Below are positions 5,343 through 53,096 of a stretch of DNA of 53,363 bases, piece after piece. The stretch comes from Chiloscyllium plagiosum (Eukaryota), in assembly GCF_004010195.1 (NCBI RefSeq), contig NC_057757.1:8662789-8716151 (forward strand). Direction: 5' to 3'. Positions within the stretch are counted from its first letter, which is position 1. Every line of letters begins with the position of its first letter. Below the pieces are notes generated by a model. That model was not told the DNA's origin, ran no database searches, and was given only the letters and a program-made list of their open reading frames with translations. The translations under genes and the position numbers were made by a program.

Positions 5343-6259
5343 TGAACATAGTCACAATTGTGATCTTGTCTCGGAGAAAATGTGGTCTCTCAAACTGCGT
5401 CACTTCCTACCTGCTCGCCATGGCAATGGCAGATCTACTCGTTGTTATCATTGATCTGATCCTGCGGCAGATTCCTATTGTCTATCGGGAGCAATTTAAT
5501 TTTGTGAGGACCATTCATTTGTGTAATATCCATGCAGTCTTGTTGTATGCTGTCACTGACTGCTCTGTCTGGTTCACTGTCGCTTTCACCTTTGATCGCT
5601 GCACTGCCATTTGTTGGCAGAAACTGAAATCGAAATATTGCATTGAGAAGATGGCCATTGTGGTCCTTGGAACTGTAACTGTGATGAGCTGTTTGAAAAA
5701 CACATTCTGGTATTTTCTGTATACAAGTGATTATTGGCTTTCCAATAATCCCTGGTTTTGCCGCGTGTCTTTCAATGTATCTCGTTCACTGGTCTGGGCT
5801 GTCACTGAATTAATGCATTATATTTTGACACCATTCGTTCCCTTTCTCTTGATTTTAGTGTTCAATGCATTGACAGTCCAGCACATTATCATAGCCAGCA
5901 GAGCTCGCAGGAGACTGCAATGTCAGGGTCAGGGTGAAAACGCCAAAGATCAGGAGATGGGAAACCGAAGGAAATCCATGATTTTGCTGTTTGTTATGTC
6001 GGGAAATTTCATGTTGCTATGGGCTGTCTTCATGATCTCTTTCATATTGAGACGCTTGGATTACTTGGGATATCCTATTTCTCTGCCTACCTTTGTATCA
6101 GAAATTGGCTCAATGTTGCAACTCCTGAGTTGCTGCACAAACACCTTTATTTATGTAATTACTCAGCAGAGGTTCAAAGAGGAACTGAGCAATGGAGTCA
6201 CGTATCCCCTGGCAATGACTGTCAAGTTGTGTCAATGGATGAGGCAAACACTTTCTTGA
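5343..6259 (+). CDS. GPR139-like class A GPCR, gene 1, exon 2 (mid-TM1 to C-terminus); exon 1 not in the window
   Basis: Acceptor atttacag at 5335-5342 (phase 1) and an open frame to TGA. Motifs include AMADLL (TM2), C3.25, FDRC (DRY-like), WFC (ECL2), FMLLW (TM6) and NTFIY (TM7). Paralogous to 22209-23098. Confidence 0.9.
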
Positions 6260-6505
6260 AAAATATTTTTGTGTCTCACTCGATAGAATGTTCAGAAGAA
6301 AACCTTGATTTTTTTTTTGTTCTTTTCTAAAACATTCACTGATGAATTCATGCAAGATCATTAGAAATCGGAGAAGGCGATATGGCCCCCTTCAAACCCA
6401 CTCCACCATTCAATAAGATCATGGCTGATCCGACATTCCTCACACCCACTTTCCTGCCCTTTCCGTAAAATCCTTCAATTCCCAAGTCATCCATAACCTA
6501 TCCAG

Positions 6506-6976
6506 GAGGAAAAAACAATGACTGCAGATGCTGGAAACCAGATTCTGGATTAGTGGTGCTGAAAGAGCACAGCAGTTCAGACAGCATCCAAGGAGCAGCA
6601 AAATCGACGTTTCGGGCAAAAGCCCTTCATCAGGAATAAAAGCAGAGAGCTTGAAGCGTGGAGAGATAAGCTAGAGGAGGGTGGGGGTAGGGAGAAAGTA
6701 GCATAGAGTCACGACATGGTTGAAGAGCTTCAGGGCAGAGGAAATGACCTGGGAGTTGCAGTGGGAGAGGGACTCCCTGCAATTCTTGTAGAGAGAGGAG
6801 GAAAACTTCTGCAAGGCAGGCATCCTTGCAAGAGGATTCGCAGAAGGGTTAAAATCAACGAGGAAAAAACAATGACTGCAGATGCTGGAAACCAGATTCT
6901 GGTTTAGTGGTGCTGGAAGAGCACAGCAATTCAGGCAGAATCCAAGGAGCAGCGAAATCGACGTTTGGACAAAAGC
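6506..6976 (-). mobile_element. Miniature, internally deleted Penelope-like element (pLTR, ORF 5' end, 3' UTR, pLTR)
   Basis: 12-bp TSD taacctatccag at 6494-6505 and 6977-6988. Direct repeats 6506-6623 and 6860-6976. The minus strand encodes MPALQKFSSSLYKNCRESLSHCNSQVISSALKLFNH. Confidence 0.8.
6601..6637 (-). ncRNA. Minimal type I hammerhead ribozyme motif
   Basis: Minus strand reads AUUC-CUGAUGA-A-GGGC-UUUU-GCCC-GAAA-C-GUC-GAUU: complete core, 4-bp helix II, palindromic ACGU. Confidence 0.65.
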
Positions 6977-7071
6977 TAACCTATCCAGCTCAGTCTTAAA
7001 TGCACACAGGGAATCTGCCCCCACAGCCTGAACAATGAAGAACCTCTTCATGTCTGTCTTAAACTGGTGCA

Positions 7072-7160
7072 CCTGAAGAAGGGCTTATGCCCGAAACGTC
7101 GATTCTCCTGTTCCTTGGATGCTGCCTGACCTGCTGCGCTTTTCCAGCAACACATTTTCA
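7072..7160 (+). mobile_element. Penelope pseudo-LTR fragment beginning with a hammerhead core (7073-7100)
   Basis: CTGAAGA-a-gggc-ttat-gccc-GAAA-cgtc-gattctcctgttccttggatgctgcctgacc. Near-identical copies at 11083-11204 and 35386-35498. Confidence 0.8.
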
Positions 7161-7251
7161 CCTTTATTTGAGACAGTGTCCTCTCGTCTTGGACTCTGCC
7201 ATAAAGGGAAACAATCTCTCAACATTTATCCTGTCGAGCTCCTTCACCTTT

Positions 7252-7547
7252 CTAGATTAGATTACATTACATTACAGTGTGGAAACAGGCCCTTCAGCCC
7301 AACTAGTCCACACCAACCCACAACCCACCCATACCCCAAATCTAACACTATGGGCAATTTAGCATGGCCAATTCACGTGACCTGCACATCTTTGGACTGT
7401 GGGAGCAAACCAGAGCACCTGGTGGAAACCCAAGCAGACATGGGGAGAACATGCAAACTCCACACAGTTAGTCACCTGAGGCGGCAATTGAACCCGGGTC
7501 TCTGGCGCTGTGAGGCAGCAGTGCTAACCACTGTGCCACCTTTCGGC
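7252..7547 (-). mobile_element. HE1-type V-SINE
   Basis: Minus-strand tRNA-like head ggtggcacagtggttagcactgctgcctcacagc...gggttcaatt (A and B boxes), V-domain tgtggagtttgcatgttctcccc, and a CR1-like tail. Confidence 0.9.
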
Positions 7548-7829
7548 CCACTGTCTCATCTTTCAATGAGACCACCTTTCATTCTTAAACGATCCTTTGA
7601 GAAAAGTTCCAAGGTATTCAATCTTTGTTCATAAGACGATCCCTCCATACCAGGGATGATACGAGCATGTCTTCTCTGAAATGCCTCTGATGAACTGCTC
7701 ACAGTAATCCAGATGTGGTCTCATTAGCACCTTGTGAAGTTGCAGTGAGACTTCCCTACGCTTATATTAGGGCCGACATTCTACTCGCCTTCTTGATTAC
7801 CAGCTGCACCTGATTAAAGATTGGACAGC

Positions 7830-8165
7830 ATTATGGAATCTTTACTGTGTGGCCCAATAAGTCCACACCGAACATCTGAGGAGTACCCATCCAGACCCAT
7901 TCCCCCACTACTCCATATTTACCCTCACAAACGCACCTAACCTACAGATTCCTGAACACGATGGACAATTTAGCATGGCCAGTTCACCTAACCTGCATAT
8001 CTTTTGATTGTGGGAGGAAATCAGAGCACCGGAATAAACACACGCAGAACGGGGAAAATGTTCAAACTCCACATAGACTATTGTCCGAGGCAGGTGTCGA
8101 ACCTGGGTGCGCGGCACCCAGGCAACAGTGAGGCAATAGTGCTAACCATTGAGCCACCATGTGGT
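7830..8165 (-). mobile_element. HE1-type V-SINE
   Basis: Same head (ggtggctcaatggttagcact), V-domain and tail as 7252-7547. Confidence 0.85.
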
Positions 8166-8269
8166 CACAAAAGAGTTGCGGAGTTTGTACATTTCGGCAA
8201 ATTCGAATTTCATTTCCCTCTGAGACCAGTTGAACCCGGCTCAACAGACATGTTGTGTTGGATGTTACA

Positions 8270-8660
8270 GTAACAGAATCAGAAAGCACAGGATTATGTC
8301 TCAGTTAAACAGCAAACACTAAAGCATATTATTTCCATTCAACTACACTTGGTCCATAACCAACAACGTCCTGGCATTTAAAGTGCTTCTTAAATGTAGT
8401 GAGAGTACCTGCCTCTACCATCTTCCCAGGCAGCGTATTTAATATTTCTGCTACCCTCTCGGTGAAAATCTATTTCTTCACACCTCATCTGATCCACTTA
8501 TTCTTCACCTTAAACTTATAGCCCCCGGTCTTAGACGTGTTTGCCATGGAGGTACGTTTCTCACAGATTCTCACCAGCGACCTGATCTACCGCTCATAAT
8601 TTTGTGTATGCCAATCATATTCCCCTCAGCCTCCTTTACCAGAGAGAAAACAAATCCAGC
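8270..8660 (-). mobile_element. CR1 3' fragment
   Basis: cttaaatgtagtgagagtacctgcctctacca...cccctcagcctcctt...gaaaacaaatccagc. Confidence 0.7.
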
Positions 8661-8669
8661 AAGTAGGGG

Positions 8670-9038
8670 TGTCACCCCCAACTGGGTACAAAGACTCGGG
8701 AGGCAGACAGAATTCAGGTAAGTGGCAGACTTTCATTCAAGCAACAATCGATTAATGCTGGAAGAAGGCCAAACAACCTTTCCCGAATCTGGCCCTGATG
8801 TCAGAACCCTGTCTTTCTATGAATTTACGGCTCAGATTGGAAGAACTATCAATGGCATACTCTTTTTTTTACTGTGAAACACAGCATTTTCATACATTTT
8901 GTGTTAGAATAATCACACACAACGTGGTCACTGTGTCCTTCCCCTGTATTCCACATACCCAACCCTGTGAAATACCTAATCATTGACAGGCATTCCTACT
9001 GACAGCCCCAGGTTCTCATGATCTCATGGCGTTTAACA
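8670..9038 (-). mobile_element. Possible LTR
   Basis: TGTCAC...TTAACA ends, with TATA-like and polyA-like words in LTR order on the minus strand. No TSD or second copy seen. Confidence 0.3.
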
Positions 9039-9889
9039 CACACTGTAATCTCCAGACCTTGGTCTCTTTTTATGCATCCAACTGATTTGTCTTTCACAGT
9101 TACTCGTTATTCTCCTTCGGACCTGTCCCAGACTTGTATATCTTGAAGGATTGCTTGAATTCTGTTATTCATTGTATTCCATGTGCCATCTCTATCAAGT
9201 TATGTTTTTCCTCTTATATTTTCCACTGTCCCAAATATATCTATAAAATTTACAAAAGACAGTTGCTTTTAACTAACTGCTATAAGATTTATCGTGTTAA
9301 TTTCCCATTATAAAGTTAGCTACACTTTTCAACCAATAAGTTGTGAACAATCTCTTTCATATAGCATCCTTTTTTAAGATAAAGAAACGTTTACGGACAC
9401 TAATTAACTTTCACATCGAAGTTTAAATATTTTCATCTAATGTTTCTGTTATACTTTGGTTATTATGTGTATCTATAATTGTGATGAAATCTATCTGTAT
9501 GATTATCTGACAAATCTTTAACTCGAACTTACTTCTTGATATTGGAAATAACTTAAAAGGAAGAATTGATTACTATAAAATAACTTCAGATGTTTTCATA
9601 ATGAGATGGGCTGAGATTTATAGTGCTTGTTCTAACTGACACTGTTCACCTAATGGGACAGCATGCTTTCATTAATGAGGATGGAATCAATCAGTTGTCA
9701 TATTTTAATGATCTTGTGTCTATCCTTAGATACCCTCGAATCAAACTGTTTCAAATAGTTGCTTGTAGCATCTCTTGTTCACTTTGGTGTAAGTCTCTGC
9801 AAAGGTACCATGATGGTTCATTTCTCTGCAGGAGCAGGTTGATTAATTCTAGTTAACCCTTGTCGTCCAAATTGTATTTTTCAAACATG

Positions 9890-10867: not shown

Positions 10868-11062
10868 TGTCTAGTTGGAAGATGAGATGCTGTTTCTCCA
10901 GTTTGCGTTGAGCTTCACTGGAACATTGCAGCAGGCCAAGGACAGACATGTGGGCATGGGAGCAGGATTGTGTATTCCAGTGAAGCTCAACGCAAGTTGG
11001 AGGATCAGCATCTCATCTTCCGACTAGGCACGTGACAGCCTGCCGGTCTCAACATTGAATTC

Positions 11063-13605: not shown

Positions 13606-13907
13606 CGAAACTAGCATTTGCAGCTTCATTCCCTGTGAAGATTTTAACTCTACTGGGGATACAGCTCTGAGAGTGATGTCTTAGTTTCATCGCATCGACA
13701 AGTCTTTTGTGACCTTCATTGTCACAATTAGGTCACACCTTTTTAAATAATTGTTGCATTGACTTCAATTGTGACACCAAGCGATTGTTGAGAAATAAGA
13801 TGACAATATCTTTGTGGTTGTTTTTGTAAGGCACAGACTCGATGGACTGAAAGGTCTTTTTATGTACAAATTTCAGATGTATTGGCGATGTCTCTATGAG
13901 GCAAGTC

Positions 13908-14690
13908 CATTGGGCAAGTCTAATTCTAGAGCGAATTATACAATGAATGGAAGAGCCTTGGGAAAAGTTGATGGGCAGCGAGATCTGGGAGTGCAGGTCC
14001 ATTGTACCCCGAAGGTTGATGCACAGGTGGATAGAGTGGTCAAGAAGGCATATAGTATGCTTGCCTTCATTGGACGGGATATTGCGTATAAGAGCTGGCA
14101 AGTCATGTTAAAATTGTACAAGACATTGGTTCGGCTGCATTTAGAATATTGTGTACAGTTCTGGGCGCCACATTACCAAAAGGATGTGGACGCTTTGGAG
14201 AGGGTACAGAGAAGGTTTACAAGGATGTTGCCTGGTATGGAAGGTGCTAGCTATGAAGAGCGGTTGAATAGGTTAGGTTTATTTTCACTAGAAAAAAGTA
14301 GATTGAGGGGGGACCTGATTGAAGCTTCCAAAATCATGAAGGGTATAGACAGGGTGGATAGAGACAAGCTTTTTCCCAGGGTGAAGGTTTCAATATACGG
14401 AGGTCATGCTTTCAAGGTGAGAGGTGGAAAGTTTAAGGGGGATACACGTGGCAAGTACTTCACACAGAGGGTGGAGGGCGTTTGGAACGCATGCCAGCAG
14501 AGATGGTAGAGGCAGGCACGGTAGATTTATTTAAGATGCGTCTGGACAGATGCAGGAGTAGGTGGGGATCAGAGGGTTACAAATGCTTAGGAATTGACCG
14601 ACAGGTTAAACAGTACATTTGGATCGGCTCAGGCTTGAAGGACCGAAGGCCTGTTCCTGGGCTGTAAATTTTCTTTGTTCCTCTCTGTTG
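13908..14690 (+). mobile_element. Young 5'-truncated CR1 LINE (ORF2 C-terminus and 3' UTR)
   Basis: GKSN..YTMNG..QRDLGVQVH..KKAYSMLAFI..LYKTLVRLHLEYCVQFWAPHYQKDVDALERVQRRFTRMLPG in ORF 13814-14509. Confidence 0.95.
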
Positions 14691-16421
14691 TCTGTTCTGA
14701 CCCTACAAGCTATTAAAATGTAGTTAATCAAATAAATGTGAACGAACTCACGGGGCTGATTAGCCTATTCCCATTCCAATGTTCCTCGCTACTTATCTCA
14801 ATAATTTTGGAGACACAAACTTTTCACAAGCTGTCAAAAGTTTTTCATTGATCTTCGAAGCTGCAAATGTTTAATGCATCTTTTTTTCACACAGTTAAAG
14901 GAGTTTTAAGAGATTTAAAATAATTCTGAAGCACGTGCTCCTTTGAAGTGTTCTGAGACTCAACCATGATAAAAGGGCATGTGTCGTTAGCTGGCAAGTC
15001 ACTGGGTGTTTGGTCTGGATTCGTCAGCACTGTCCCTCACAGCATAACCTTGTAGCTCGATTTGACTCTGGGTCATGGTCCAGTCAAAGGTGAAATTCTC
15101 ACGACCATCAAGTAACCTCTTAAACCTCGGCTCTTGGCAAAAGCTGCAGCTCCAAAATTGATCAGAGAATCCAGACTAAATCAAACCAGACAAAGATGAG
15201 TGTTCTCAGTGTCAGGAGAATTTGATACTTTTCTTTTGCAACATAAGGGCTACCTTTATCAGGTGAAGCATAGAATACAGTGGAGTCGGCGGGGGTGGGG
15301 GTGGGGGAGTTAATGTTGTAACCATATAAAATTCTGGTGAAGCCACAATTGCAGTTCTGTATGCAGTTCTGATCATCAAATTATCGGAAGGATGCAATGG
15401 CATAGCAGAAAATGCTGGTGTGGCCAAAGCTAAAATATTGCATATAGTTGTGGAACTCACCGCCTGAAAGGGTGGAAGCATGAATCCTTATGACATTTTA
15501 AAAATATTTAGTTGAAAACTTCAAATTCTGTAGCATACAAGATTGCAGACTGAGTCTTGGGAAATACAATTACAGTAGGTGTTTGTCGACTAGCCAAAAT
15601 GGGCAGAAGGGCCTCTTTCCATGCTGTAATATCTAATGGTGTGTATCAATTAGCTCAGTTGGTTGGGTAGCTGGTTTGTGATGCTGCCTCATTCCAGATT
15701 TTTTCAAGGGATCAGACATTGTACCAAGTTCCCATGAAATCTTATGTACTTAAAGAAGATCATTCTAGGAACGATGTGGTTACGTGAGACAGAGTTCACC
15801 GGAGGATAACCAGGATGCTTGGAACTCCCTGCCTGAAAGGGTGGTTGATTTAGAAACTCTTCCACCACACAAGCTGCATGGGGTAGGAGTCTTGAGTTGC
15901 AGTGGTAGTTTCCATACCTTTGGGTCAGGAGCCTCCTGCTTCAAATCCCCTTCAGTGCAAAAGGTGAATCTGAGCAGGTTTATTTTTTTTTAAAAAGTCT
16001 ATAACACACATTTAGGTATTCACTTGCTTTTTCATTACCTTCAGGATGATGGGCTAAAAGCTGATAAATGGAGTTTAGTTGCAATCAGATTTTTGGTGGC
16101 TGGCATGAACACAATGGACTGAATGGTCTCCTTCTGTGTCGTAAATGTATAGAGTGCTTTACATCACATGAACAATGCTGCAACATTCAGACATAATTTC
16201 AATTTCTGTTCCAGGATTATTTCTTGTCTCTGTTTCTCACTTCAGCCGATTTGCAAAACAAAATGTCTCTCCTTTGGTGGATATATAAAAAAAATTTAAT
16301 TAGTACATAACATCGCTTGCTCTGTAGAAATGTGTCTGAGTGCCAGCGAGTAGCTGAATGTGTTTGTTCAATAACGGTGATTAATTCCATTTCCCATGCG
16401 GCCATAGGAGAACGTTCCAAG

Positions 16422-16432
16422 TATAATATATA
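16422..16432 (+). promoter_or_regulatory. Candidate TATA box of gene 2
   Basis: TATAATATATA starts 72 nt before the ATG. The paralogous spacing is 78 nt. Confidence 0.45.
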
Positions 16433-16493: not shown

Positions 16494-16635
16494 ATGCTGG
16501 AATTACACAGAAGCTCAGGTCCCAGCCAAAGTGAGAAGACAGGCTGGTCCTTGCTTACACTGCTCAGGATACAGTTTGTTTTTCGGGATATACAGAAACT
16601 GTACTATCCTATCCTGGCTGCTTTTGCTGGTCCTT
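16494..16635 (+). CDS. GPR139-like GPCR gene 2, exon 1 (N-terminus and first half of TM1)
   Basis: gcaccATG context. Encodes MLELH...LRIQFVFRDIQKLYYPILAAFAGP, followed by a phase-1 donor T|gtaagt at 16636. The DIQxxYYxxLA motif recurs at 36239 and 53048. Confidence 0.85.
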
Positions 16636-22208: not shown

Positions 22209-23098
22209 TTAACATGATAACGATTGTAATCCTATATCGGGGCAGGTGTGGCCTCTCCAAATGCGTCACACGTTACCTGGTAGCCATGGCAGCAACGGAT
22301 CTGCTGATCATTATCTTTGATCTAGTATGGAGGCATATCCCTTCAGTTTATCGTTTGGAATTCAGTTTCTTATTGTATATCCCAGTGTGTAACATCCACG
22401 CTGTTTTGCTCTACACTGTTACTGACTGTTCAGTCTGGTTCACAGTCAGTTTCACATTCGATCGCTACATCGCCATTTGTTCCCAGAAATTGAAAACTAA
22501 ATACTGTGTGGAGAAAACAGCGACTGTGATTCTTACAACAACTGCTCTGCTCTGCTCATTGAAAAATACTTTCTGGTACTTTATGTACTCGAATAGTTAC
22601 TGGTTCGCAAATCTATCCTGGTTTTGTGTTGTGAAGCAAAGTGTTGCACAATCAAAAGTGTGGGGTGCTGTTGAATTCTTCCACTACATATTGACACCAT
22701 GCATTCCATTTATTATGATCTTGCTGTTCAATGCTTTAACGGTCAGGTACATTTTAGTCACTAACAGAGCCCGCAGCAGACTCCGGAATCATTGCTGTAG
22801 GGAATGTCCCAGTGACCCTGAGATGGAGAGTCGCAGGAAGTCCATAATTATCCTGTACGCTATATCAGGGAACTTCATTTTATTATGGGCAGTTTATATG
22901 ACCTACAGTATTTATTGGAGAATGGCTTACCTCGGCTATGAGACTGTACATCTCCCTGTGTACGTTAGGGAGGTGGGGTTCATGCTTCAGCTTCTGAGTT
23001 GCTGTACCAACACCATTATCTATGCAATAACACAACGCAAATTCAGAGAAGAGCTGCAGCATCTGTTTTTGTTTTTGTTTATTACCAATAAAAAATAA
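22209..23098 (+). CDS. GPR139-like GPCR gene 2, exon 2; spliced product 343 aa
   Basis: Acceptor tgtttgcttccttccag ends at 22208 and its phase matches exon 1 (142+890=1032 nt). Motifs AATDLL, CNIHAVLLY, FDRY, WFC, FILLW, NTIIY. Confidence 0.92.
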
Positions 23099-35759: not shown

Positions 35760-36172
35760 TATTGAATCATGGCAATACTGCATCAGTCAAAATGCTACTA
35801 ATGACAATTCCCCCATTATAACTTTGTTTCAAAATTTGGTCTTATTTCCCACAATTGATTGTTTAAGAAGATACCTTTGCAAGAATTGTCAAACATGGAT
35901 TATTCTGTTCATATGCAAACTTGGATAAATTCTTGGGGTTGATGAGCAGGGATAGGGTTAGCTGGTCAGGACATGCACTCTTCATGCACAAATTCCTCTA
36001 ACAATACTTGTTGATTTTGTTACTTATGGTGGTGGTTGCAATTAGGCTCAAGTAACTTCGGAATTTATTTTCTGATCTGTGAAATTCTCTTTCGTATAAA
36101 TAATGGAAGTTTTCTCAAACTCCCAAATAAAGATCCAGGTAATCCTCGAACAGAATCATTCAAATAACTATT
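35760..36172 (+). promoter_or_regulatory. Conserved upstream region of gene 3 with TATAAATA at 36095
   Basis: Colinear with 52580-52982 (ccacaattgat; ctggtca..ttcatg.acaaatt.ctct; tttctgatctg..tataaataa). Confidence 0.65.
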
Positions 36173-36477
36173 ATTTACAAAAGGGGAAATGTGTCTCTTA
36201 GTTTTACTATCAAGTAGAAGATTCTGTGGGCGATCACTGATATACAGAGGAGTTACTACCCTGTCTTAGCTGCTGTTGGTGTCCCGGGTACGTTACACCC
36301 TAAGGATGATGTTTCATGGAGTGGAATGTAACCATATGTGTCATCTTAATTTTTGTGCCACTTTTTAGAATATTCTTCCATCAGTTTCAGCAGTGATTAG
36401 ACATGGAGGAATTCAGTTCTTCTATACAAATTCATTATAATCAGATCATTTGTGAGGCAAAAAAGCAGCCTGTTGGT

Positions 36478-37308: not shown

Positions 37309-38679
37309 CGGTTTCCAGTGTTCAATTCTGTGCACTGTTGTTCCTTGAAATTCTGCTGTTGAATTGTTGCGGCATTGGATTCTCATACAATTTTCTCTCT
37401 TTCAAGCTTGTGATGTCATATTGTTGATGATTCAACAGCTCCTTTCATCCCCAGCACTGATTATACTTTCAGAGACCTCAAGTCTGTCGTTCACTTTCTC
37501 ATCAGAAATAAGTCTTTTGTATCTTGTTACAGTTGAGGTTAGCTGTCTGTTTAAAACACAGCTTTTCTTGTAATTTGTGAAAAGGTTGGACGTTGATGCA
37601 AAAACACTGGAAACTACTTAAGAATTAGTATCAAATTTTTACTGGAAATAGAGCAAGAAAACATTTTTGCATTATACCTGTGCGATAAATGATCTTAGTT
37701 ATTCTCTTCTTTCACTTTAGCGTAATTTCAAATAATGACCCTGCTACTGGGAAAGTGTGGGCTTTCCAAATGTATCATTCATTAACTGGTGACTATGGCA
37801 GTGCCGAATCTACTGGTCACTATCTTTTATCTGATACTCTAACAAATTCCCATTATGTATCGCAGCGAGTTTCTATTTGTGCCTGCACTCCATGAATGCA
37901 ACATCCATGCTGTTCTGCTTTTTGCTGTCACACACTGCTTTGCCTGGTTCACGGTCATATTCAATTTTGATCGGTTTGTGACCATATGTTGCCAAACGCT
38001 GAGAAATAAACATTGCACCAAGAAAACAGCGGCTGTGGTTTTCGGAACAGTGACTGTGCTGAGTTGTTTGAAAAGTATTTTCTGGTGTTTCATATATTAC
38101 AATCGATATTAGCTTTCTGAGAGTCCATGGGTTTTGAAAATCCTCAAAATACACTTACTTCAGTTGTATGAACCATTGTTGAATTAATGCATTACATGAT
38201 AATGACATTCATTCCATTTATTTTGATTCTACTGTTAAACACATTCACAGTCATAAACATTATATTAGCCAACAGAGCTCACAGGACAGTCTGGGGTCAG
38301 ACTACTGGGGATAGTGTCAGTGACCCAGAAATGGGGAAATCCTGGAGGAAATCCATGGTCATGTTATTTATTATGTCTGGCAATTTCATCATGTTATGGA
38401 TGGTGTTCATTGCTTAATCCATATTAAAACGATTTGATTATTTGGGAACTCCAGTTCCTCTGCTAACATTTGTAAGAGAGATTAGCTTCATGTTCCAGCT
38501 CCTGACTTGCTGCACAAGCACTCAGTTACTCAGAGGAATATCAGAGAAAAGATTAAAAATGGGATAATGTATCCTTTCACAAGTTTGGTCAAAGGAACTT
38601 GATTAAACATAAGCCAACATTCAACATTAATACAACATTTCGTTTCACAATCTGTTATATTATCTGTTCAATGATTTTT

Positions 38680-40189: not shown

Positions 40190-40211
40190 AGGATTACTGA
40201 ATTGTTAAAGC

Positions 40212-43200
40212 TGTCACAAAGCTAGCCCCCTATTTTATAAAAGCCGCTCCTTGGTTTCAGAATACTCTGCCCTTGATTTTGTTTTTCAGTGGAATAAAAA
40301 ACTAGGCCAGGCTCCGATCAGACTTATTTGGTACAGAGATGAACATGATTTTGAACGGCCTTTTGTTTATATGTAAACAGATGAATACTTCAGGCCAAAG
40401 TGGTCATGTTTTAGATGCGACCTGTATAATGAAAGAGGAGTGGTCAGCTCTCTAGCTGAGCAGCTTAGTTCAGTCGAGAACTGGTTGGGAGTTAAACAGT
40501 GAGTCGTGTGGAAACTCTCGCTTCTGCCCTTCTAACTTCAACCTGTAATTTTCTGGCCCTTTTTTGTACTGTGCTTTAACGGGATTTGCTTATTGGGACT
40601 GTTATGTATATTCGGAGCAGCATACTTAAGTTTAGTTTGGATAGACTGAGTTCTGTAGGGGTTCTTTATTCTGTTCTTCGTGTTTCAATGTGCAATTTTG
40701 TTAAATTCTTTTTTTGTCTGTTTTAAACCACATAGTCAACATCACTAACTTACTCTGGGTAATTTCCACTGTGCATTTACAGAAACAAATTGCATAGTTA
40801 TGGTCAGGGATGCCTGCTTATGAATGTTTTGATTGGTCTGGCCTACTCCATCACAGATTGGGAATTCGTTGTGGAAATTTAATTCGGAGTGGTAGGTGCT
40901 AGTGTGTTGGTTTGGTTAGGTAGACAAAGCTTGGCATAGAAACGGCACTTTTAGTCACCAGACGTTTTCAGGAAGTGGATGCAGTGGCTATGGAAGCTTT
41001 CCAAAAAATGAATAAGACCAAGCTGCAGGAATTAACAGAGAAGCTGGAATTAGAACTTTCTGGCTTTCTGACCAATAGTTCAGCATTTAAACTTGCTGGA
41101 GAAAACATCAGAATGTGTAGAGATAGCAAGAATTCAATTGCAAATGAAGCAGACTGAGTTAGAGGTGAGAGATTAAGAAAAAGTGGCAGAAATGAAACAG
41201 TTTGAGCTCCGATTAAAAGCAGAAGAGACGGAAAAAGACAGTGCAGCAGAACAGAGAGAAAAAGACAGAGCAGCAGAACAGAGAAGAGAAGAGAGCAAAG
41301 ACAGAAAAAGAGAGAGCTTTTGAAGTTCAAAAACTGACACTAAAAAAGGAAAGTCAGCTTAAAAGGCTGGAGATAAAGGCTCAGGGTAGACTTAGTGAGG
41401 AAGAGAGTGAAAATAAGCAAGCCCCTGGTAGTCAGAGGCCTAGAGAGAAACTGTTTAAATATGTTCAAGTATTGATTAAATTGTATGGGACAGAGGTTGA
41501 AGCCTTTTTCATCTCATTTGTAAGTGTAGCAAAACAAATGCAAAGGCCAGTGGTAATATGGATTTGTTGATCTAAATGAAACTTGTAGGTAGGGCTGGTG
41601 AGGTATTCACATCGCTATCAGAGGAAGTATCAAGGGAGTATGAGGAGGCGAAAAAAACATATGAGCTTGTCCCAGAAGCCTACAGACAAAGCTTTAGTAA
41701 TCTAAAGAGGGAACCTGGTCAAACCGATATTGAGTTTGAAAGGAATTTTGATAAATGGATAAGAGCTTGAAAAGTCGAGCAAACTTATGGTGCCCTTAGA
41801 GAGGTAATTATTTTGGAAGAATTGAAAAAAAATCACTGCCTGAAGTAATACAAACTCACGTGGAAGAGCAGAGAGTTAAAACAGCAAGATTATCAGCTGA
41901 AGTGGCTGATGATTATGAGCTGATCCAGAAAACTCGTATGGGTTCCAGAATCAATTTTGGTCCATGAGGGATAGACATTGGGGCCAAGAGAAATCCTCCT
42001 GTGGAAAGGGAACAGTAGTTTTTAGTGAACATCATAATGATAACTTACCACAGTGTTAGGAAAAAGAAACCCTTGAGGGGGACAGTGAAGTTAAAAGGCT
42101 CCAGTGTTTGCATTGTCATAAAGTGGGCCACATGAAATCACAGTGTTGGTGGGAAAGGAGAAAGCCAGATGTATAAAAACCAGACAAGCCTGGAAATTTT
42201 GTAGGATTGATGACAAAAAGCACAAGAGAAATTAGGCAACTGCCTAAGAATGTACAAGATGTTCAGAGGTTGATTAAGGAGGAAGTGTCAGATCCACTTA
42301 AAAAATATGCATGCGAGGGTAAGGTTTATTCACATAGGCCAGGAGCAGTAGGCAAGGAAGTTACAATATTAAGGGACACAGGATCGTCTCCGTCTGTAAT
42401 GTTGAAGGATGAGGAGATATGTATTCCTGGGCGTCTATCGCCAGTAAAGGCACTGGTAACAAGAATTCATGGTGAGACAAAAAAGTACTCAGTTATGTAA
42501 AGTGAGGCTAGAGAGTCCAGAAAAGAGTAGATAATTTTTGGTAGGAGTGCTAGGCAAACTCTCAGCTCTAGGAATACAATTTGTCCTTGCAAGTCATACT
42601 GCTGATTTACTGGTGGATGTGTTTATCGAGGACTTTTCCCTGATTGTGTGATCACAGGATCACAGATGCACAAGTTGAAGCAAGGGAGATCAAAAGGCAC
42701 CGAAAAGGAAGCTGACATAGGTTTATCAGAAAATTATTTCGATCAGATAAGTGAAACAGAGAAGGAGCAAATAGGTAGACATGCAAATATATTTAGCTCT
42801 GCTAAGTTGATTGAATTACAACAGAATGATGAGAACTTAAAGCAGTTATATCGAAAGGTATTTACAAAAAAAAAAGAGTGAATGCAGCCCTGTCTGTTAT
42901 TACTTAAATATGATGTCTTAATGAGGAAATGGAGACTATCACACATTCAAGTAGATGAGAAATGGGCAGAGATTTTCAAGTTGTTTTGCCAGTAGGTTAT
43001 AGAAAGGATGTGTTGTGAGTGGTGCATGAGCTGCCACTTGGAAGTCATTTAGGGGTAAGGAAAACAAAGGCTAAAATACAAAAACATTTTTATTGGCCTC
43101 GATTGCACAAAGATGTAGTTAAATTTTACAACATACGTCATACATGTCAGCTATTCAGAACACCACAGGCAGTAATAAAACCTTTAATACGTTTTTCAGC

Positions 43201-46200
43201 ATTCAAGGAACCTTTCATAAACAAAGAGTGAGAATAAGTATTTACTAACAATAATAGATGTGATCACTAGGTTTCCAGAGGCAATCTCTTGTTGCAACAT
43301 CACAGCTAAAAGGGTTTTAAACTAATTACTTTTTTTTTACTCGATACGGACTTCCAATAGAGATCAACTTAGATCAATGATCGAACTTCACATCCAAATT
43401 ATTCAAGGATGTTATAGATTACTTAGGAATAAAGAAATTAAAATCTACTGCAGACCACCCTGAATCGCCGGGAGAGCTAGAGAGGTGGCATCAAACATTA
43501 AAGACCATGTTGAAGACTTATGGTCACTATTATCCAGATGATTGCGAGATGGGAATTTCGTTTGTGCTAATCGCGATGAGAGATGCACCAAATGAATCAA
43601 CCAAATTCAGACAATTTGCATTAACTTTTAGGCATGAAATAAGAAGACCATTAAAATTGATTAAGGAAAAAATAATAAAAAAGAATTCAGAGAACACCCA
43701 TTTGAACTATGTGCCAAATTTTAGAGAATGATGACATAGGGCTGACCAATTGGCTGGGCAGCATTTAAAAGTATCACAGCATAGAATGAAACAGGAAGCG
43801 GATAAAAGATACACAAATTCATAATTTTGCATTTGGGGATAAGCTATTGGTGTTATTTCCAGTAACAGGCGAGCCTTGAAATGCAAACTGTAGTGAACTG
43901 TATCAAAATGAAAGGAAATTGAGTGAGATAAACAGCTTTATAAGGACTCCAGATAGGAAGAAATCTTACAGAGCGTTTCTTATGAATGTGCTCAAAAGGC
44001 ATTTTGGAAGGGAAGGAAAGCAAGAGGAGAAGGTGTTAATGATTACAGCACAGAAGGAAGAACCAAGTTCAGAGGAATCTGACTTGGACATTCCTCAAGT
44101 CAAATTGGACAGTGAGGAATTTGTCAAAAATTGGGATAAATTATTGAGTTACCCTTCACAAGAAAATCGAAATGACCTGAAAGAGTTATTACTGTCACAT
44201 GGGGAAATATGCGGAAATAAACTGGGAAGCACCAACCTAATTGTGCATGATGTAGATATAGAAAATGTTGTTCTGATTAAGCATATAGGCATAACCCTCG
44301 AAAGTTGGCACAGGTTCAGAAGAAGATAGAGCTCATGCTGCAAGATGGCAAAATCAAAATGAGTTTCAATGACTGGAGCTCACTCATAGTCATGATGTGC
44401 CAAAGCCAGATGGGACCCATTGGTTATGTGTGGACTATTGAAAAGTCAATGCCATTACTAAGACTGATGCAAATCCAATTCCACGGTTAGGGGACTATGT
44501 CGAAATAGTGAGACAAGCAACTTAGCTTTCTAACTTGGACTTACTCAGAGGCTACTGGCAAGTACCTTTGTCAGAAAGACCAAAGGCGATTTCAGTTTTT
44601 GTAACGCCAAATGGACTATATCAGTTCAAATTCATGCCATTTGGTATGAAAAATGCTCCAGCTACATTTCAGCGACAGACCAATAAGATCATTGCCCGAT
44701 TACCCAAATGCTGTTGCATATTGATGACCTGGTGATTTTTAGTCACTCATGGAAGGAACATGTATGACTTTTATCAGACATTATCAATTGACTTCGGAAG
44801 GCAGACTTGGTAAACGTATCTAAAAGTGAAATTGCCAAAGTCCAAGTCACCTTCCTAGGTCATGTTATTAGACATGGACAAATGGCCCCATGAGACATAA
44901 AAATCAAAGTAATTGGGGAATTTCCCACACCATCAACAAAAAATCAGTACTATGGTTCCTGGGATTGAGTGGATTTTACCAAAGGTTTGTGCCAAACTTT
45001 AGCAGTGTGGATGCTCCAATCACTGAATTGTTAAACAAGGGCAAGAAGTTTCAGTGGGCAGCGGACTGTCAAAAGGCACCTGACAGCATAAAAACTGTGT
45101 TAACCACTGCCCCAGTATTAGCCACACAGGATTACATGATGCGTTTCAAGGTGGCTGTGATGTGGGTATCGGTGTGGTACTCCTGCAGGAGGATGGCAAA
45201 GGGGTAGAAAGACTCATCGGGTACTTTTCCAGGGAGTTGAATATTCACCAACAGAAATATTCAATGGTAGATAAAGAGACTTTAAGCTTGGTGTTGGCAT
45301 TGCATCATTTTAGTGTTTATATTACCAGCAATGCATCTGAGACATTCATATACACTGCTCATAACCTATTGACGTTTGTGGAAAAGGTCAAAGACAAAAA
45401 TGCCAGACTGTTTCGATGGAGTTTGTTGTTACAGCCATTCAATTTGGCAATGGTGCATGTGGCAGGTCACGAAAATGTGATTACCAATGTGTTATCGAGA
45501 CTTGAATCAGCTATGGATGGGGTGTGCCACACCCTTTATTTGCATGTGATTGTGCATGTTTGCATGTTTATAATTAGTATAGTATACATCTGTTTACACT
45601 ACAAAATGGGTTTTTGAAGGGTTAAAACTGAAGCCATATTTTGCTATTGATGATTCATTTTTTTTAAGGGGAGATGTGTCACATAGCTAGCCCTTTCTTT
45701 TTCAAAAAGCTGTTCCTTGGCTCAAGGATACTCTGTCCTTTTTTTTCAGAGAGGTAATAAACCAGACCGGGTCCGATTAGGCTGGTTTGGTACAGAGATC
45801 AAAAGCATTTAGATAGGCCTTTTGTTTATATGTAAACAAATGAGAATTCAGGTCAAAGTGGTCATGTTTTAGAAGTGACCTGTATAATGAAAGGGTAAGT
45901 GGTCAGCTGTCTAGCTGAGCAGTTTAGTTCAGTCCAGAACTGGGTGGGATTTCAACGGTGAGCTGTGTGGAAGCTCTCTCTCCTGCCCTTCTAACTTTAA
46001 CCTGTATCCTATGACCCTTTTTTGTACTGTGTTTTAAATGTGGTTTGCTAATTGGCAATGTTGTGTAGATTCGGTTCAGCATATATATGTCTAGTTTGGA
46101 TTGACTGAGTTTTGGAGGGGGTCCTTAATCTGTTCTTCATGTTTCATTGTGTAATTTTATGAAAAACGTTTTGCCTGTTTTAAATCTGGAAGTCAACCTT

Positions 46201-47690: not shown

Positions 47691-47789
47691 TTGAAATAAT
47701 TCTACAAGGCTGGTATCTTATCTCCAAGTCTTCCTTTATTTCCAGGTTCTTGGTAACCTGACCCTAGTCCAGCTTCTCCCAGAGTGTAC

Positions 47790-50740
47790 AGAACCCCCTG
47801 ATAGTATGTGGATGGTCCAACTGGTGGAGGGGCAATACCGGGCCTTGTACTGGTTAGCGATTCTGACCATGTTACTAACCTTCCACTGGGAGAGCATTTT
47901 AAAAGCAGTGAGCAGAACCCCTTTTGTCTTCAGATACTTATGAACAAGGATAAGTCAGGACCTTGTGGCATGTTACTCAATTGGGGGAGGGAAAATTACG
48001 TTAGTATCAGGCAGGAGTTAGGGAGTGTTAATGGGGAGGAGCTGTGATCAGGCCAATCCACATTTGGCATGTAGGAGTTGTTTAAAGACTGGCTGTTCAG
48101 GGTTTAGGACCAAAATGTTCCATTAAGGAGGAAGGTCAAGGATGGCAAGGTCAGGGACCTTTGGATAATGTGGGAGGTTGTGAATTTACTCAAAAGGGGG
48201 AAAATATAATATATTTCGCACACTAAAATCAGACAGAGCCCATGAGGAATATAAATAAGGCAGGAAAGAACACAAACAGGGAATTGGGAGAGCAAGAAAG
48301 GACTATGAAATGACCTTTGCTTTTGTTTTAAAGAGAAACCAAAGTCATTCTGTATACATATTTAAAACAAGGGGATAACTAAGGAGAAGGTAGAACCACT
48401 CAAGTATAAAGGAGTGGACTTGTGTTTGGAGGTGAAGGATGTGGGTGAGATCCTAAATGAGTACTTTATGTAGGTACACACCCAGGAGAAGGATATGGAG
48501 GATGATGTGATTAGCGTGGAGCATGCTAATGTGCTTGGGCATTTTGAGATCAAGAACGAATTGATGTTCGATCTCTTGAAGAGCATTAATATAGCTATGT
48601 CCCCAGCGGCCGATGGTATCTAATCAGGGTATGGAGGGAGACAAGAGAAGAGATATTTGGGGCCTTGAGCAAGACCTTTGTGCCCTCACTAGGCACCGGA
48701 GACGTCCTGGAGGACTGGAAAGGAGGTAATGTTGTTCCTCTCCTCAAGAAGAGAAATTGGGATAATCCAGGAATCTATAGACTGTTGAGTCTCACATTAG
48801 TGATAGGGAAGTTATTGGAGTGAAATCTTCGGGATAGGAAGAAGAATGGCCTAATTAGGGGCAGTCAGCCCGGCTTTGTGCAGGGCACGTCGTATCTTAC
48901 TAACTTGACTGAATTTTTCAAGGAAGTGAAAAGGCTGATCAGTGAGGGCTGAACAATGGATGTTGTCCACATGGATTCTAGTAATGCTTTCCACAAGGTC
49001 CTTCATGGTCAGCTCATCCAGAAGATAAATTTGGATGGGATCCACGGTGACTTGACCACATGGATTTAGGATTGGTTTGCCCATAGTAGGCAGAGGAGAG
49101 CAATGGAAGTGTGTTTTCCAGATGGAGACCCATGATGAGTAGTATTCCAAAGTGAACCATACTTAGACCTCTGATGTATCAATGCATATAAATGACTTAC
49201 ATATAAATGACTTTATATAGAAGATCAGTGGAGTTGCGGATAGTGTAGCCGGTTGTGAAAGAGTCCAGTGACATATAGATCAGTTTCATATATGAACGGA
49301 GAAATGGCAGTTGGAGATTCATCTGGATAAGTATGAGATTCTGCACTTTGGGAGATCACATGTTAAGGAAAAGTATACAGTTAATGGGAGGACCTTGACC
49401 AGCATTGATGCGCAGAGGGTTCTTGGGGTTCAAGTCCTGAGCTCCTATAAAAGCAGTTAGGATTGTACACAAGGCATATGGCTTGCTTATGTTTATTGGT
49501 CGGGGAATTGAGTATAAGAGTGAGGATGTCATGTTGTAGATTTATAAGAATTTGGTTCAGCCGTATTATAACATAGAACATAGAACAATACAACACAGAA
49601 CAGGGCCTTCGGCCCACGATGTTGTGCAGAACATTTGTCCTAGCTTAAGCACCTATCCATGTACCTATCCAATTGCCGCTTAAAGGTCACCAATGATTCT
49701 GACTCTGCCACTCCCACAGGCAGCGCATTTCATGTCCCCACCACTCTCTGGGTAAAGAACCTCCACCTGACAGCCCCCCTATACCTCCACCCTTCACCCT
49801 AAATTTATGTTCCTTGTAACACTCTGTTGTACCCGGGGAAAAAGTCTCTGACTGTCTACTCTATCTATTCCCATGATCATCTTATAAACCTCTATCAGTC
49901 CCTCTGCTCCTCCACCTTACTAAGGTGGAACCCTACCGTTAACCCTGTATTCTGCATTCTTATTTGTTTTTCCAAAATGGACAACCTCACACTTGACAGG
50001 GTTGAACTCCATCTGCCAGTCCTCAGCCCAGCTCTGCATCATATCTAAGTCCCTTTGCAGCCGCCAACAGCCCTCCTCACTATCCACAACTCCACCAATC
50101 TTCGTATCATCTGTAAATTTACTGACCCACACTTCGTCTCCCTCTTCCAAGTCATTAATAAAAATTACAAACAGCAGAGGACCCAGAACTGATCCCTGCG
50201 GATCAGTATTGTTTTCAATTCTGGTTGCCACACTACAGGAAGGATATGAAGGCTTTCGAGAGGTTCAGAAGTGGTTTGCCAGGATGCTGCCTGGATTAGA
50301 AGATATGAGCTTTAAAGCGAGGCTAGAAAATGTCAGGTTGTTTTCTCTGGAGTCATTGAGGCTGAGGGTAGACTTCATAGAAGTCGATAAAGTTACGAGA
50401 TAATGTTGGCAGTGAAAGTCTTTTTCCAGAGTTGAAATGTCTAAAACTAGGGGTCTTGAATTTAAGGTGAAAGGTGTAAAGTTCAAAGGAGATCTGAGGG
50501 TCATTTTCTTCAACAGGGAATGGTAGGAGTCTGGAACACACTGCCAGGTAGTGCGGTGTAGGCAAATGCGAAAGGGCTGTTTAAGGGACTTTTAGATAAA
50601 CACATGAATATGTAAGGAATGGAGGGTTATAGAGCGAGGGCAGGCAGAAGGGATTAATTTAATTTAGCGATATGGTCGACACAGCATTATGGGATGAAGG
50701 GCCTGTTCCTAAACTGCTACTGTTTTCTGTTCTATGTTCC
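47790..50740 (+). mobile_element. Long decayed CR1 LINE ORF2 with a nested minus-strand CR1
   Basis: PTGGGAIPGLVL..LGEHFKSSEQ (47808), ccaggaatctatagactgttgag (PGNYRP region), cttactaacttgactgaatttttc, and a 3' tail ttctatgttcc near 50735. Confidence 0.9.
49570..50203 (-). mobile_element. Nested CR1 fragment (RT core joined to the 3' tail)
   Basis: PQGSVLGPLLFVIFINDL..VSKFTDDTKIGG in ORF 49920-50231, with tail (acataga)n at 49570. Confidence 0.9.
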
Positions 50741-51019
50741 TGCTTATATCTGTCAAGCAGAACTCTCTGATTCGACCAGGTAAACAGCCCCAATCAAAGA
50801 ACTCATGTTCGACAAGGTTCATCTGAATTCGTGACAATCACTCCTCTCAGGGTTTAGGGATTAATACTTCATTAATAATACCGCTAGGTCAATTCCTCTC
50901 CAGATAAATAACAGCAACTGAACATTCCCCAGCATATTTGACTCTTCTTAATACCTTTTCCTCCTACCTCATCCATGATAAATAGTCCTAATGATGTTCG
51001 AGACAATACAAGTGACACT

Positions 51020-52215
51020 GAGCATAAGACAGAGGGCTGTCTTATTGAAGTCATAGAGGACTTTGGTAAGACCGCAGCTGGAGTATTGTGTGTGGTTTTG
51101 CTCTCCCTCCCTGAAAGATGTTATCCTTACCATAGAGGGAGTGCAGCAAAAGCTGATACTGAGGAGGGCAGGATTGTCCTCTGAGGAGAGACTGTCCAAC
51201 TGGGCCTGTGTTCACTCGAGTTTAGAAGGATGAGAATGGATCTGATGGAAATGCACAAAATTCAAACAGGTGAGATGCAGAGTAGATGTTTCCCCAGGCT
51301 GGCGAGTCTAGAATGAGAGGTCACTGTTTCAGGATATGGGAGGAAAGCAATGAGGGCTAAGATGAGGAAACATTGATTCACACAGAGGGTGGTTGACCTG
51401 TGGAATTCTCTCCCACACCAGACTGTCGAGGCATGGTCACAGAATCTATTTGAGAAACAACTGAATAAATGTTGTGATGTAACGGCATCAAGATGTATAG
51501 GGCGAAAGTGGGAACATGAAATTGAGATCGAGGATCAGGCAAGATCATATTGAAAGGCAGAGCAGGCTCGAAGAGCTGAGTGGCCTATTTCTGTCGTGGT
51601 CTATGTTTGAGGCAAAGCTGAAGTAGAGTTTACTCAGGCTCGCTTGAGGCTCTTTGATAGGAAGAATAGAAGGGCTGAATGTTACTTGAACAGCGAAAAT
51701 ATCTGCAGAATGATTCGGGAGTCATCATGAACGTTTTACAGAAATGGGAGACGCCGCATTTTATGGATATTAGGGAAGGACAATGGGCAGGTGGCCTTTT
51801 TTGCTTATGGGAACAGAAAATAGGAAAAAGGAGATCTTGTTAAACTGTACAAGCCTCTGGCCAAGATGCCCCTGAAATATTGTCAACGGCTTTCAGCCCC
51901 TTATATTAGGGAAGATATCCTTGGCAGTGGAGGCAGTCAGAGATGATTCACTCGGCTGTTACTAGGAATGGAACGAATGTCCAATGAGGGGAGTTTGATG
52001 AGTGTGGGCCTGTGGTGATGAGATTTTAGACAAATCAAAGGCACCATTATGAAAGTATACAAGACTCTTTGAGGTCTTGTCAGGTTGGAAATGGACAGAT
52101 TGTTTCCCCTTGTAGGTGAGGCCACGATCTGGGACTTGTTCAGATTGGGATGTCTGGTCGCCATGGACTAGCTGGACTGAATGGCCCTTTTCCCTGCTGA
52201 ATGACTCTATGGCTA
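51020..52215 (+). mobile_element. Two decayed CR1 3' fragments
   Basis: ctttggtaagaccgcagctggagtattgtg...ctgtggaattctctccca (51020-51610) and ctgtacaagcctctgg...ctgaaatattgt (51680-52215). Confidence 0.75.
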
Positions 52216-52229
52216 TGTTTATGGAGGTG

Positions 52230-52570
52230 CACCCGTCCAGGCAAGTGGGGATTATATCATCACACTCCTGCCTTGTGGCTTGTTGATGGTAGACAGGTTT
52301 TGCGGAGTCAGAAATTGAGTTACTTTCTGCAGTATTCCCAGCCTCTGACCTGCTCCTTGGCTGTGTGCACCGACCTGCAGCATGTAGACTGCACTTGGTA
52401 AAGAAAGCAGCTCACCCCACCTTTTCAAGGGTAACTATGAAAGGACAGTAAATGTTGCTACACCCAGGAACTCCAACATCCGATGTGATGCTACAAAAAC
52501 CATGGTATTGAGTGGCTTGTTCAGTTCAGTTTTAGGTCATGGTAACCTCCAGGACATTGCTAGTGGAGAA
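52230..52570 (-). mobile_element. L2/CR1-clade LINE fragment with a nested opposite-strand tail, paralogous to 29100-29445
   Basis: Same order and junctions as the block upstream of gene 3. Confidence 0.7.
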
Positions 52571-52579
52571 TAGTTGTCC

Positions 52580-52982
52580 TCCTTGAATTATACCAATGCT
52601 GTCTGCGTCTATAATCTGACAATTAAATTGTCTCATTATGATTACTTTACAATGTTTGTTGTTGTCATCCACAATTGATCTATTTCAGGAGTTTATTTTG
52701 GTAGAATTCTGGCATAAGGACCACATTATTAACGTGCAGATTTTGATGCTGGGGAAAAAGGATACTGTCAACTGGTCAAGAGTTGCATTGTTCATGTACA
52801 AATTACTCTGACAGTGGTTGATGATTTCATTACTCCAATTGGTGTTTGTAATTCGGCTCCCTCAACATGGGGACGGAATTTCTGATCTGATGAATTCGCC
52901 TTGCTATAAATAAGGGATGTTATCTCAATCTCTCAAACAGATATCAGACCAAACCTTAGCAACAATCTTCAAAACATCCGTC
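52580..52982 (+). promoter_or_regulatory. Conserved upstream region of gene 4 with TATAAATA at 52905
   Basis: Colinear with 35760-36172. TATA-to-start distance is 78 nt in both. Confidence 0.65.
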
Positions 52983-53096
52983 ATGTGCAAAAGGAAATTC
53001 ATGTTTCTTGTTTTTTGGTCAAGCTGAAGGATCAGTGGGCGATTAATGACATACAGAGGATTTACTACCTGATCTTAGCCTCATTTGGTGTTCCGG
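52983..53096 (+). CDS. GPR139-like gene 4, exon 1, with an apparent 1-nt frameshift (pseudogene or assembly error); exon 2 beyond the window
   Basis: WAINDIQRIYYLILASFGVP followed by G|gtaagt at 53097. The ATG at 52983 is 80 nt from the YY codons (81 in gene 3) and is therefore out of frame. Confidence 0.75.

Follow-up and report, generated by a model that had tools for sequence, protein, structure and literature searches.

What do the genes of a tandem row of receptors resembling GPR139, a G protein-coupled receptor (GPCR), detect in a shark, and how far does such a row extend through the genome? The row in question lies in a 53,363-nucleotide (nt) stretch of the bamboo shark Chiloscyllium plagiosum (NC_057757.1, positions 8,662,789 to 8,716,151; G000:C48:8662789-8716151, in a genome of 3.56 Gb in 101,977 contigs), here called the window, where the original prediction, made from the letters alone, had placed four related genes and proposed a lineage-specific chemosensory or metabolite-receptor family. 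We find that the four genes are unexceptional in themselves but belong to an exceptional family, with no fewer than 1,485 loci, and likely about 3,000, in the genome of this shark. We give about an even chance to the view that this is an undescribed chemosensory repertoire, predicted to respond to peptides or proteins. The further proposition, that the cartilaginous fishes have here their own dominant chemoreceptor family of thousands of genes, derived from a GPR139-related peptide-receptor lineage and equipped with an antibody-like variable rim for waterborne peptides and proteins, is offered more tentatively and with somewhat less than even confidence.

Size and composition of the receptor family

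A genome search with gene 2, the complete gene of the window, returned 8,299 first-look candidates; the 132 that were scored were full or near-full copies on many contigs, mostly with 56%–65% identity. Counts by pattern gave 1,485 genome matches to the exon-1 end together with its splice donor (0 in controls), 1,080 and 1,057 to two motifs of the third transmembrane helix (TM3; controls 1 and 0, respectively), and 352 to a pattern of one subfamily, a lower bound for that subfamily. In addition, a 25-nt promoter block is kept exactly at 474 places in the genome. These patterns undercount the family, as the first TM3 motif detects 6 of 12 local copies and none of 30 divergent loci, and the exon-1 pattern misses every exon-1 copy of the local 233 kb. 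Within the range covered by both the promoter and exon-1 lists, 26 of the 53 promoter matches are followed, 273–560 nt downstream, by an exon-1 match, and capture-recapture from the two lists yields about 2,985 loci, a rough estimate given that the patterns are correlated and that assembly gaps split genes. One 108-Mb contig (G000:C8) is dense with the family, with 59 exon-1 matches in its first 9.5 Mb, and on several other large contigs the copies gather near the ends. The birth-and-death cluster of the original prediction is seen locally, with 12 exon-2 copies in the 233 kb around the window (7 open, one of them cut by a gap, and 5 dead), but it is a small part of a system of thousands of loci on many chromosomes.

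Protein identity is above 92% in only 5 of the 2,278 pairs formed by 68 copies of one subfamily, and in no pair is it above 95.4%. On this distribution, uncollapsed alleles are rejected as the chief origin of the count, and very divergent alleles could at most halve the number of loci. Many copies appear intact: 117 of the 134 top matches of the subfamily are stop-free (a sample of best scorers and hence biased toward intact copies), and of the 30 exon 1s sampled, 24 have an open frame whose Met is 25 or more codons upstream of the splice donor. Exon 1 was often not found within 6–29 kb of exon 2, and at two loci it was located 17 and 22 kb upstream. Orphan exon-2 cassettes were ruled out on the basis of these far-upstream exons, and because matches to exon 1 are more numerous than those to the exon-2 motifs. 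The flanks also do not support carriage by a large mobile or viral element: among the matches listed for three query loci, sharing mostly does not reach beyond about 0.7 kb upstream or 1.5 kb from the start of exon 2, apart from satellites and repeats. Introns of the most variable subfamily (L021, L027, L031, and L039) are long and contain tandem arrays with periods of about 40 and 65 nt. Such arrays may explain why many copies are found on small contigs, and may favor exchange between copies. A different repeat occurs in the exon 1s of one large group (L156, L158, L160-L165, L171, and L178-L180), where the extracellular N-terminus contains tandem copies of a 14-residue (42-nt) unit that includes a Met; the number of copies varies (about ten in L180).

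Amplification that was largely passive, in satellite-rich chromatin, with numbers swollen by assembly artefacts and few working genes, would account for the tandem repeats in the introns of the big subfamily, for flanks shared over about 0.6 kb to either side of exon 2, for the many copies on small unplaced contigs of a 101,977-contig assembly, and for the death of 5 of the 12 local copies. It does not account for pairwise identities unlike those of uncollapsed alleles, for the exact retention of the promoter block, for the strong constraint on the inner parts of the receptors described below, or for the 1,609 clusters that the public proteins form at 90% identity (among 2,035 candidates). We therefore consider passive amplification very improbable.

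Relatedness, fold, and the sites of variation

The proposal of a lineage-specific expansion labeled only as GPR139-like was borne out, in that 118 of 120 listed public matches are shark or ray proteins named "probable" or "putative G-protein coupled receptor 139" (the other two are unnamed). A profile search recovered 133 representatives at E ≤1e-30, and 17 of the 20 looked up are chondrichthyan (sharks, skates, rays, and Callorhinchus), while three carry no organism; ten lower-ranked matches include salamanders, coelacanth, two teleosts, amphioxus, and one shark. Subfamilies of the gene-1 and gene-2 types recur in Heptranchias, Heterodontus, and Mustelus, among others. No description of the family in print was found in a search outside subscription journals and several supplements, and a term search of the main text of five papers on shark genomes (PMC11979771, PMC10620051, PMC13100897, PMC11406177, and PMC7677710) found no mention of it. 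The genes thus exist as public models, and the family itself is undescribed in the literature found.

Judged by sequence, the family members are not GPR139 orthologs, because the shark has a separate GPR139 gene (one motif match, C21:58.73 Mb), because this gene shares only about 23% identity with genes 1 and 2 (22.8%–24.9% in the ortholog comparison), and because a joint clade of the expansion and GPR139 was rejected (approximately unbiased test, P = 0.0057). Descent from GPR139 itself is accordingly not upheld, although public gene models of the family carry the GPR139 name. Two quick trees recovered the chondrichthyan expansion as a clade (support by Shimodaira-Hasegawa-like approximate likelihood ratio test [SH-aLRT] of 93 and 97), sister to a gene of amphibians and sturgeon (joint SH-aLRT of 99 in both) and apart from both GPR139 and another conserved "GPR139-like" vertebrate gene; both were quick searches with SH-aLRT support only, in which GPR139 forms a long branch and GPR142 is absent. 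That other gene (P0239, P0276-P0393) occurs in sharks, fishes, amphibians, and reptiles and is distinct from GPR139. Two of its models bear the name "transmembrane protein 183A isoform," which hints at that gene as a neighbor, and no mammal or bird appears among the named entries of its 120 listed matches.

The sister gene (e.g., XP_069092602.1, P0228; P0397; P0413) has the motifs AFTFDR, C..LK..YC, and DPE....R.S in common with the family. It differs in keeping P6.50, which is lost in the expansion, and in forming about one cluster per species (20 amphibian clusters, 66%–74% identity to the query), so that it is apparently single-copy. No teleost, coelacanth, or amniote members were present among 25 matches from a search of limited sensitivity. 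By these comparisons, the family is an old jawed-vertebrate orphan, low-copy in amphibians and expanded in cartilaginous fishes.

GPR139 and GPR142 (PDB 7vug and 9m42) fall in the same wider clade as the family and have similar motifs in TM1, TM2, TM3, and TM7, and among solved structures, GPR139 gives the strongest match by sequence (E = 2e-7). It is a single-copy gene, in contrast to the thousands described here, and it is without the TM3 cysteine, whereas the family keeps the cysteine pair between TM3 and the second extracellular loop (ECL2) and loses P6.50 and R6.51. Residues E3.32, F3.33, H5.43, W6.48, R6.51, and N7.39 are those that we take to form the L-Trp/L-Phe pocket of GPR139. In genes 1 and 2 and in L041, H5.43 and W6.48 are kept, F3.33 is a Tyr, and E3.32, R6.51, and N7.39 are replaced. 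Since the pocket residues of GPR139 are not kept, the Trp/Phe "metabolite receptor" option of the original prediction appears weak. The broader possibility, that the family consists of endogenous-ligand receptors (for amino acids or neuropeptides, like GPR139 and GPR142) amplified for dosage or fine tuning, gains from the sequence match to the solved structure of GPR139 and from the 66%–74% conservation of the amphibian sister gene, which is as expected for an endogenous ligand. It suffers from the low identity to shark GPR139, the rejected joint clade, and the replacement of E3.32, H3.37, R6.51, and N7.39, and it leaves the diversifying selection reported below unexplained. We regard it as highly unlikely.

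All 99 members examined match Pfam 7tm_1, and at E ≤0.01 the only other matches are to Srx and one domain of unknown function, with none to the OR, TAAR, V1R, T2R, or V2R families (which are absent from the trees). The Srx matches (7TM_GPCR_Srx) are weak and occur in 11 of the 99 members (best E = 5e-7), and 7tm_1 scores far better in all 99. The nematode Srx/Srw receptors are nonetheless a parallel, as they are likewise an orphan GPCR lineage grown into a repertoire, and Srw has been linked to peptide receptors. An alignment-based AlphaFold2 model of the full-length member P0084, used in place of a single-sequence fold of gene 2 that reached a predicted local distance difference test score of only 41, is a confident seven-helix fold (score of 89) with an extra N-terminal helix and a two-stranded ECL2. 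Most of the 50 listed Foldseek matches to this model are peptide receptors with near-tied E-values (GPR139 ranks 16th), a result that demonstrates the class A fold but not much beyond it. Both the cysteines linking TM3 and ECL2 and the D-R of TM3 are invariant in the 99 sequences, TM7 carries the motif N-T-x-I-Y, and the signaling core (DR motif, D2.50, P5.50, and N7.49) is kept. Pocket positions here and below follow motif-based numbering and not model coordinates.

Selection was assessed in the largest young subfamily (at least 352 copies), the only one tested, using its 68 best-scoring stop-free copies; these remained from 115 distinct exon-2 copies after 12 with stops, 1 with an N, and 34 of other subfamilies were dropped. 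Their tree is star-like. A grid codon model gained about 723 log-likelihood units when omega (the ratio of nonsynonymous to synonymous rates) was allowed to exceed 1, and identified 28 sites with posterior >0.99 and mean omega of at least 3. Twenty-six of these lie within the 94 of 300 columns that face outward (P = 1e-12), the outward regions having been drawn by topology after the entropy profile was known. The sites occupy ECL1 (four sites), alternate residues and the end of ECL2, positions 5.30-5.33, and ECL3, and also include 6.51, 6.54, 6.58, 6.61, 6.62, 7.29, 7.31, 7.32, and 7.35. When synonymous rates were allowed to vary by site, 24 sites (22 outward) were retained on the maximum-likelihood tree and 30 (27 outward) on a star tree, so that about 90% of the 24–30 strongly selected sites are on the extracellular rim. 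In a split-half test, sites chosen from one half of the copies had nonsynonymous differences per site (pN) of 0.38–0.40 in the remaining half, compared with a gene-wide synonymous value (pS) of 0.09–0.11, in five of five splits, and in a control, conserved codons of the outer regions had a pS of 0.116 compared with 0.092 elsewhere. Pairwise omega exceeded 1 in ECL2 (1.43) and ECL3 (1.89) and in the upper ends of TM5 (1.30) and TM6 (1.42), and was below 1 in ECL1 (0.69) and at the top of TM7 (0.82). TM3 is almost invariant (omega of 0.21), and values of 0.17–0.3 characterize TM3, inner TM6, inner TM7, and the intracellular loops. The N-terminal helix, assessed in 14 exon 1s of the group with a long N-terminus, had a pN of 0.41 and a pS of 0.37.

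Outside this subfamily, the selected columns are also the more variable ones in 22 gene-1-type proteins of other sharks (entropy of 1.18 vs 0.45). The near-invariant TM3 and divergent loops noted in the original prediction hold for genes 1 and 2, which are identical at 24 of 27 TM3 residues and differ in the loops. Because variation is concentrated at the mouth of the receptor while the deep floor formed by TM3 is fixed, the pattern suggests large ligands, such as peptides or proteins. The invertebrate relatives of the GPR139 clade are peptide receptors according to passages of one study (PMC12208981).

Promoters, tissue, and the choice between roles

Under the chemosensory reading, the receptors are predicted to differ in the external peptide or protein that each detects with its variable outer rim, and to signal through an ordinary heterotrimeric G protein. 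Duplication, together with exchange or recurrent change among copies, would reshuffle the rim sites, and TATA promoters bearing O/E-like and homeodomain-like sites would drive sparse expression in chemosensory cells, olfactory or other. Such a system would resemble the known vertebrate chemoreceptors (OR, TAAR, V1R/ORA, V2R/OlfC, T2R, and rodent FPR) in its very large, clustered repertoire subject to birth and death, its compact coding region, its promoter elements, and its variable ligand face. It would differ from them in its independent origin from a peptide-receptor clade and in varying on the outer rim with TM3 invariant; variation in ORs lines the transmembrane pocket.

The one hint of a tissue comes from a weak resemblance of the promoters to those of sensory receptors. 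A TATA-like box lies 70–130 nt above the ATG in all 15 promoters examined, and an O/E-like (EBF) palindrome lies 10–45 nt above the TATA, an interval discussed below, in 10 of 15 promoters compared with 3 of 72 control upstream windows. A second test applied the published O/E consensus (PMC3247239) to 16 nonredundant promoters. At two mismatches, 31 sites were found in promoters, 20 upstream, and 13 in introns (shuffle mean of 19.5; 3 of 300 shuffles reached 31), and 8 of the 31 lie 21–23 nt above the TATA. A forkhead-like and TAAT block precedes the O/E-like element in several subfamilies, including that of gene 2, and a seeded composite promoter pattern was matched in 7 of 47 promoters. OR promoters are typified by O/E and homeodomain sites, and V1R promoters by O/E-like sites, in the sections of two reports that treat them (PMC3247239 and PMC3247230). 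We interpret the fixed-spaced, TATA-proximal element as probably real and constrained, with a weak resemblance as the only pointer to its O/E identity.

Several observations weigh against the chemosensory reading. The 10–45-nt interval was chosen after sequence inspection; sites with at most one mismatch to the O/E consensus showed no excess (three in promoters and three upstream, shuffle mean of 2.1); and unanchored motif discovery in the promoters yielded no clean motif. Positive selection was observed in a single, best-scoring sample of one subfamily, where pS is also about doubled at the selected codons (0.18 vs 0.10) and linkage is near background at all distances (r2 of 0.02–0.05, four gametes in 59%–65% of pairs). 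Because synonymous change is doubled and linkage is near background, gene conversion or recurrent or local mutation is at work, and may inflate omega. Single-site omega values of 10–25 are, moreover, more typical of host-pathogen conflict than of odorant receptors, and EBF has a role in B cells too. Compared with their closest paralogs, the window's own genes show purifying selection alone: gene 1 has near-identical loops (pN of 0.018 at the 28 sites), and gene 2 has a pN of 0.19–0.26 against a pS of 0.21–0.30 at the 28 sites, with a pN of 0.06–0.08 elsewhere. The extracellular hypervariability of the original prediction is thus upheld, as positive selection, for the largest young branch and not for the genes in which it was first seen, where no dN/dS above 1 was found; genes 1 and 2 represent older, slower subfamilies common to sharks. 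Finally, no spliced transcript was seen among the matches listed from three runs guessed to be RNA and carrying no tissue labels, and a catshark olfactory top-50 list, in the part of the source that presents it, contains no GPCR (PMC11979771). Sparse expression would also explain a GPCR-free list of this kind.

Contigs in the three guessed-RNA runs continue through the intron. In one of them (X7, L027:2685-4150), a single contig of even depth runs across exon 2 and through 500 nt or more of the intron, and several copies of the L027 subfamily have an in-frame ATG eight codons above the splice acceptor. The contig could be DNA, pre-mRNA, or a transcript started within the intron.

The main rival is an innate-immune or barrier repertoire, in which leukocytes or mucosal cells detect pathogen or parasite peptides, or in which the rim changes to escape binding by pathogens or toxins. 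Very strong, site-focused positive selection on an invariant framework is what such a repertoire would produce, as are the star-like subfamily and the near lack of linkage between its variable sites, and the B-cell role of EBF counts in its favor as well. On the other side, motifs for NF-kB, ISRE, ETS, and RUNX showed no clear excess near exon 1 over intronic or upstream windows (35 genes), and neither "receptor 139" nor gpr139 occurs as a name in 8,645 marker rows of a bamboo shark immune-cell atlas (PMC11372145 supplement), although 11 shark rows of that table do carry "coupled receptor" names. This absence speaks weakly against broad leukocyte expression, as sparse genes escape such tables. 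We judge an immune role unlikely, though deserving of more weight than any other rival.

Rapid surface evolution is also typical of reproductive proteins. A role in reproductive recognition, in the gonad, sperm, or female tract and driven by sexual conflict or mate recognition, would accord with this. The wider clade includes the insect sex peptide/MIP receptor, as stated in passages of PMC12208981. However, thousands of loci would be unusual for gamete recognition and the promoter resemblance points to sensory neurons, leaving this role improbable. The chemosensory reading remains the one we favor, at the even confidence given above.

The four genes of the window and their surroundings

Translated searches located three exon-2 and three exon-1 copies on the forward strand of the window, with a fourth exon 2 just beyond its end (Table 1). 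The arrangement described in the original prediction was recovered at the same positions: four same-strand paralogs with exon-2 starts 15.5–18 kb apart and, in all copies, a phase-1 intron inside TM1 (YY..LA....P before the intron and.N..TI after it). Genes 1 and 2 match Pfam 7tm_1 at E = 7e-19 and 6e-15, respectively, so that a chance resemblance can be dismissed. As to the states of the copies, gene 2 is indeed complete (142 + 890 nt encoding 343 amino acids, with GT/AG intron ends) and gene 3 is indeed dead; gene 4 is dead as well. Gene 3 has a stop in exon 1 in addition to its exon-2 lesions, and exon 1 of gene 4 has 96 nt compared with 97 nt in an intact paralog, with exon 2 disrupted too. 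For gene 1, only exon 2 can be called open, as its exon 1 was not found in the window. That exon most likely resides in an assembly N gap just before the window, because a paralog of gene 1 (89% identical, 38 kb upstream) aligns on both sides of this gap. A LINE-like (long interspersed nuclear element) insertion lies about 156 nt above the expected ATG of gene 1.

Table 1. Receptor gene parts and mobile-element remnants, in window coordinates unless stated otherwise
Feature	Position	Strand	Remarks
Gene 1 exon 2, mid-TM1 to C-terminus	5343..6259	+	Frame open to TGA stop
LINE-like stretch	13799..14506	+	Recognized by eye; no Pfam family matched
Gene 2 proximal promoter	16361..16429	+	Forkhead-like block at 16361, homeodomain-like TAAT core at 16379, O/E-like degenerate palindrome at 16392, TATA-like box at 16422; factor names by resemblance only
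Gene 2 exon 1, N-terminus and outer half of TM1	16494..16635	+	47 codons + 1 nt, GT donor
Gene 2 exon 2	22209..23098	+	With exon 1, encodes an intact 343-aa class A GPCR
Weaker, second LTR-like (long terminal repeat) remnant	near 33311-34614		
Gene 3 TATA box (36095) and exon 1 (36189-36287)	36095..36287	+	Disrupted
Gene 3 exon 2, pseudogene	37721..38602	+	5 stops, frame breaks
Decayed LTR-retrotransposon-like remnants between genes 3 and 4	41217-45614		Frame 45084-45614 matches Pfam RT_RNaseH, E = 5e-23
LINE-like reverse-transcriptase fragment	49923-50264	-	RVT_1, E = 2e-11
Gene 4 promoter elements (52848-52912) and exon 1 (53001-53096)	52848..53096	+	Exon 1 one base short
Gene 4 exon 2, disrupted	G000:C48:8718577-8719443, beyond window	+	Start at ~55789 counted from the window start; translated search

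The cluster is flanked by multi-kb tandem arrays with a period of about 43 nt, at approximately 8747.4-8760.9 kb and 8634.1-8638.4 kb of the same contig (G000:C48; L007, L016, L002, and L003).

The cartilaginous fishes have been described, in parts of the respective sources, as having about 10–50 olfactory receptors despite large olfactory organs (PMC10116579), and as relatively poor in GPCRs (PMC8455134). The 1,500–3,000 loci mislabeled "probable GPR139" challenge the latter statement, and the family offers a direct test of the 10–50-receptor view of shark smell. If the chemosensory reading is true, the number of these genes would equal or exceed that of mammalian odorant receptors, and both views would be overturned. 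If the family is instead immune, it would constitute a germline-encoded variable GPCR repertoire, and we know of no vertebrate precedent for one on such a scale. Either way, a single orphan gene has remained conserved and low-copy in amphibians and has multiplied explosively in sharks and rays.

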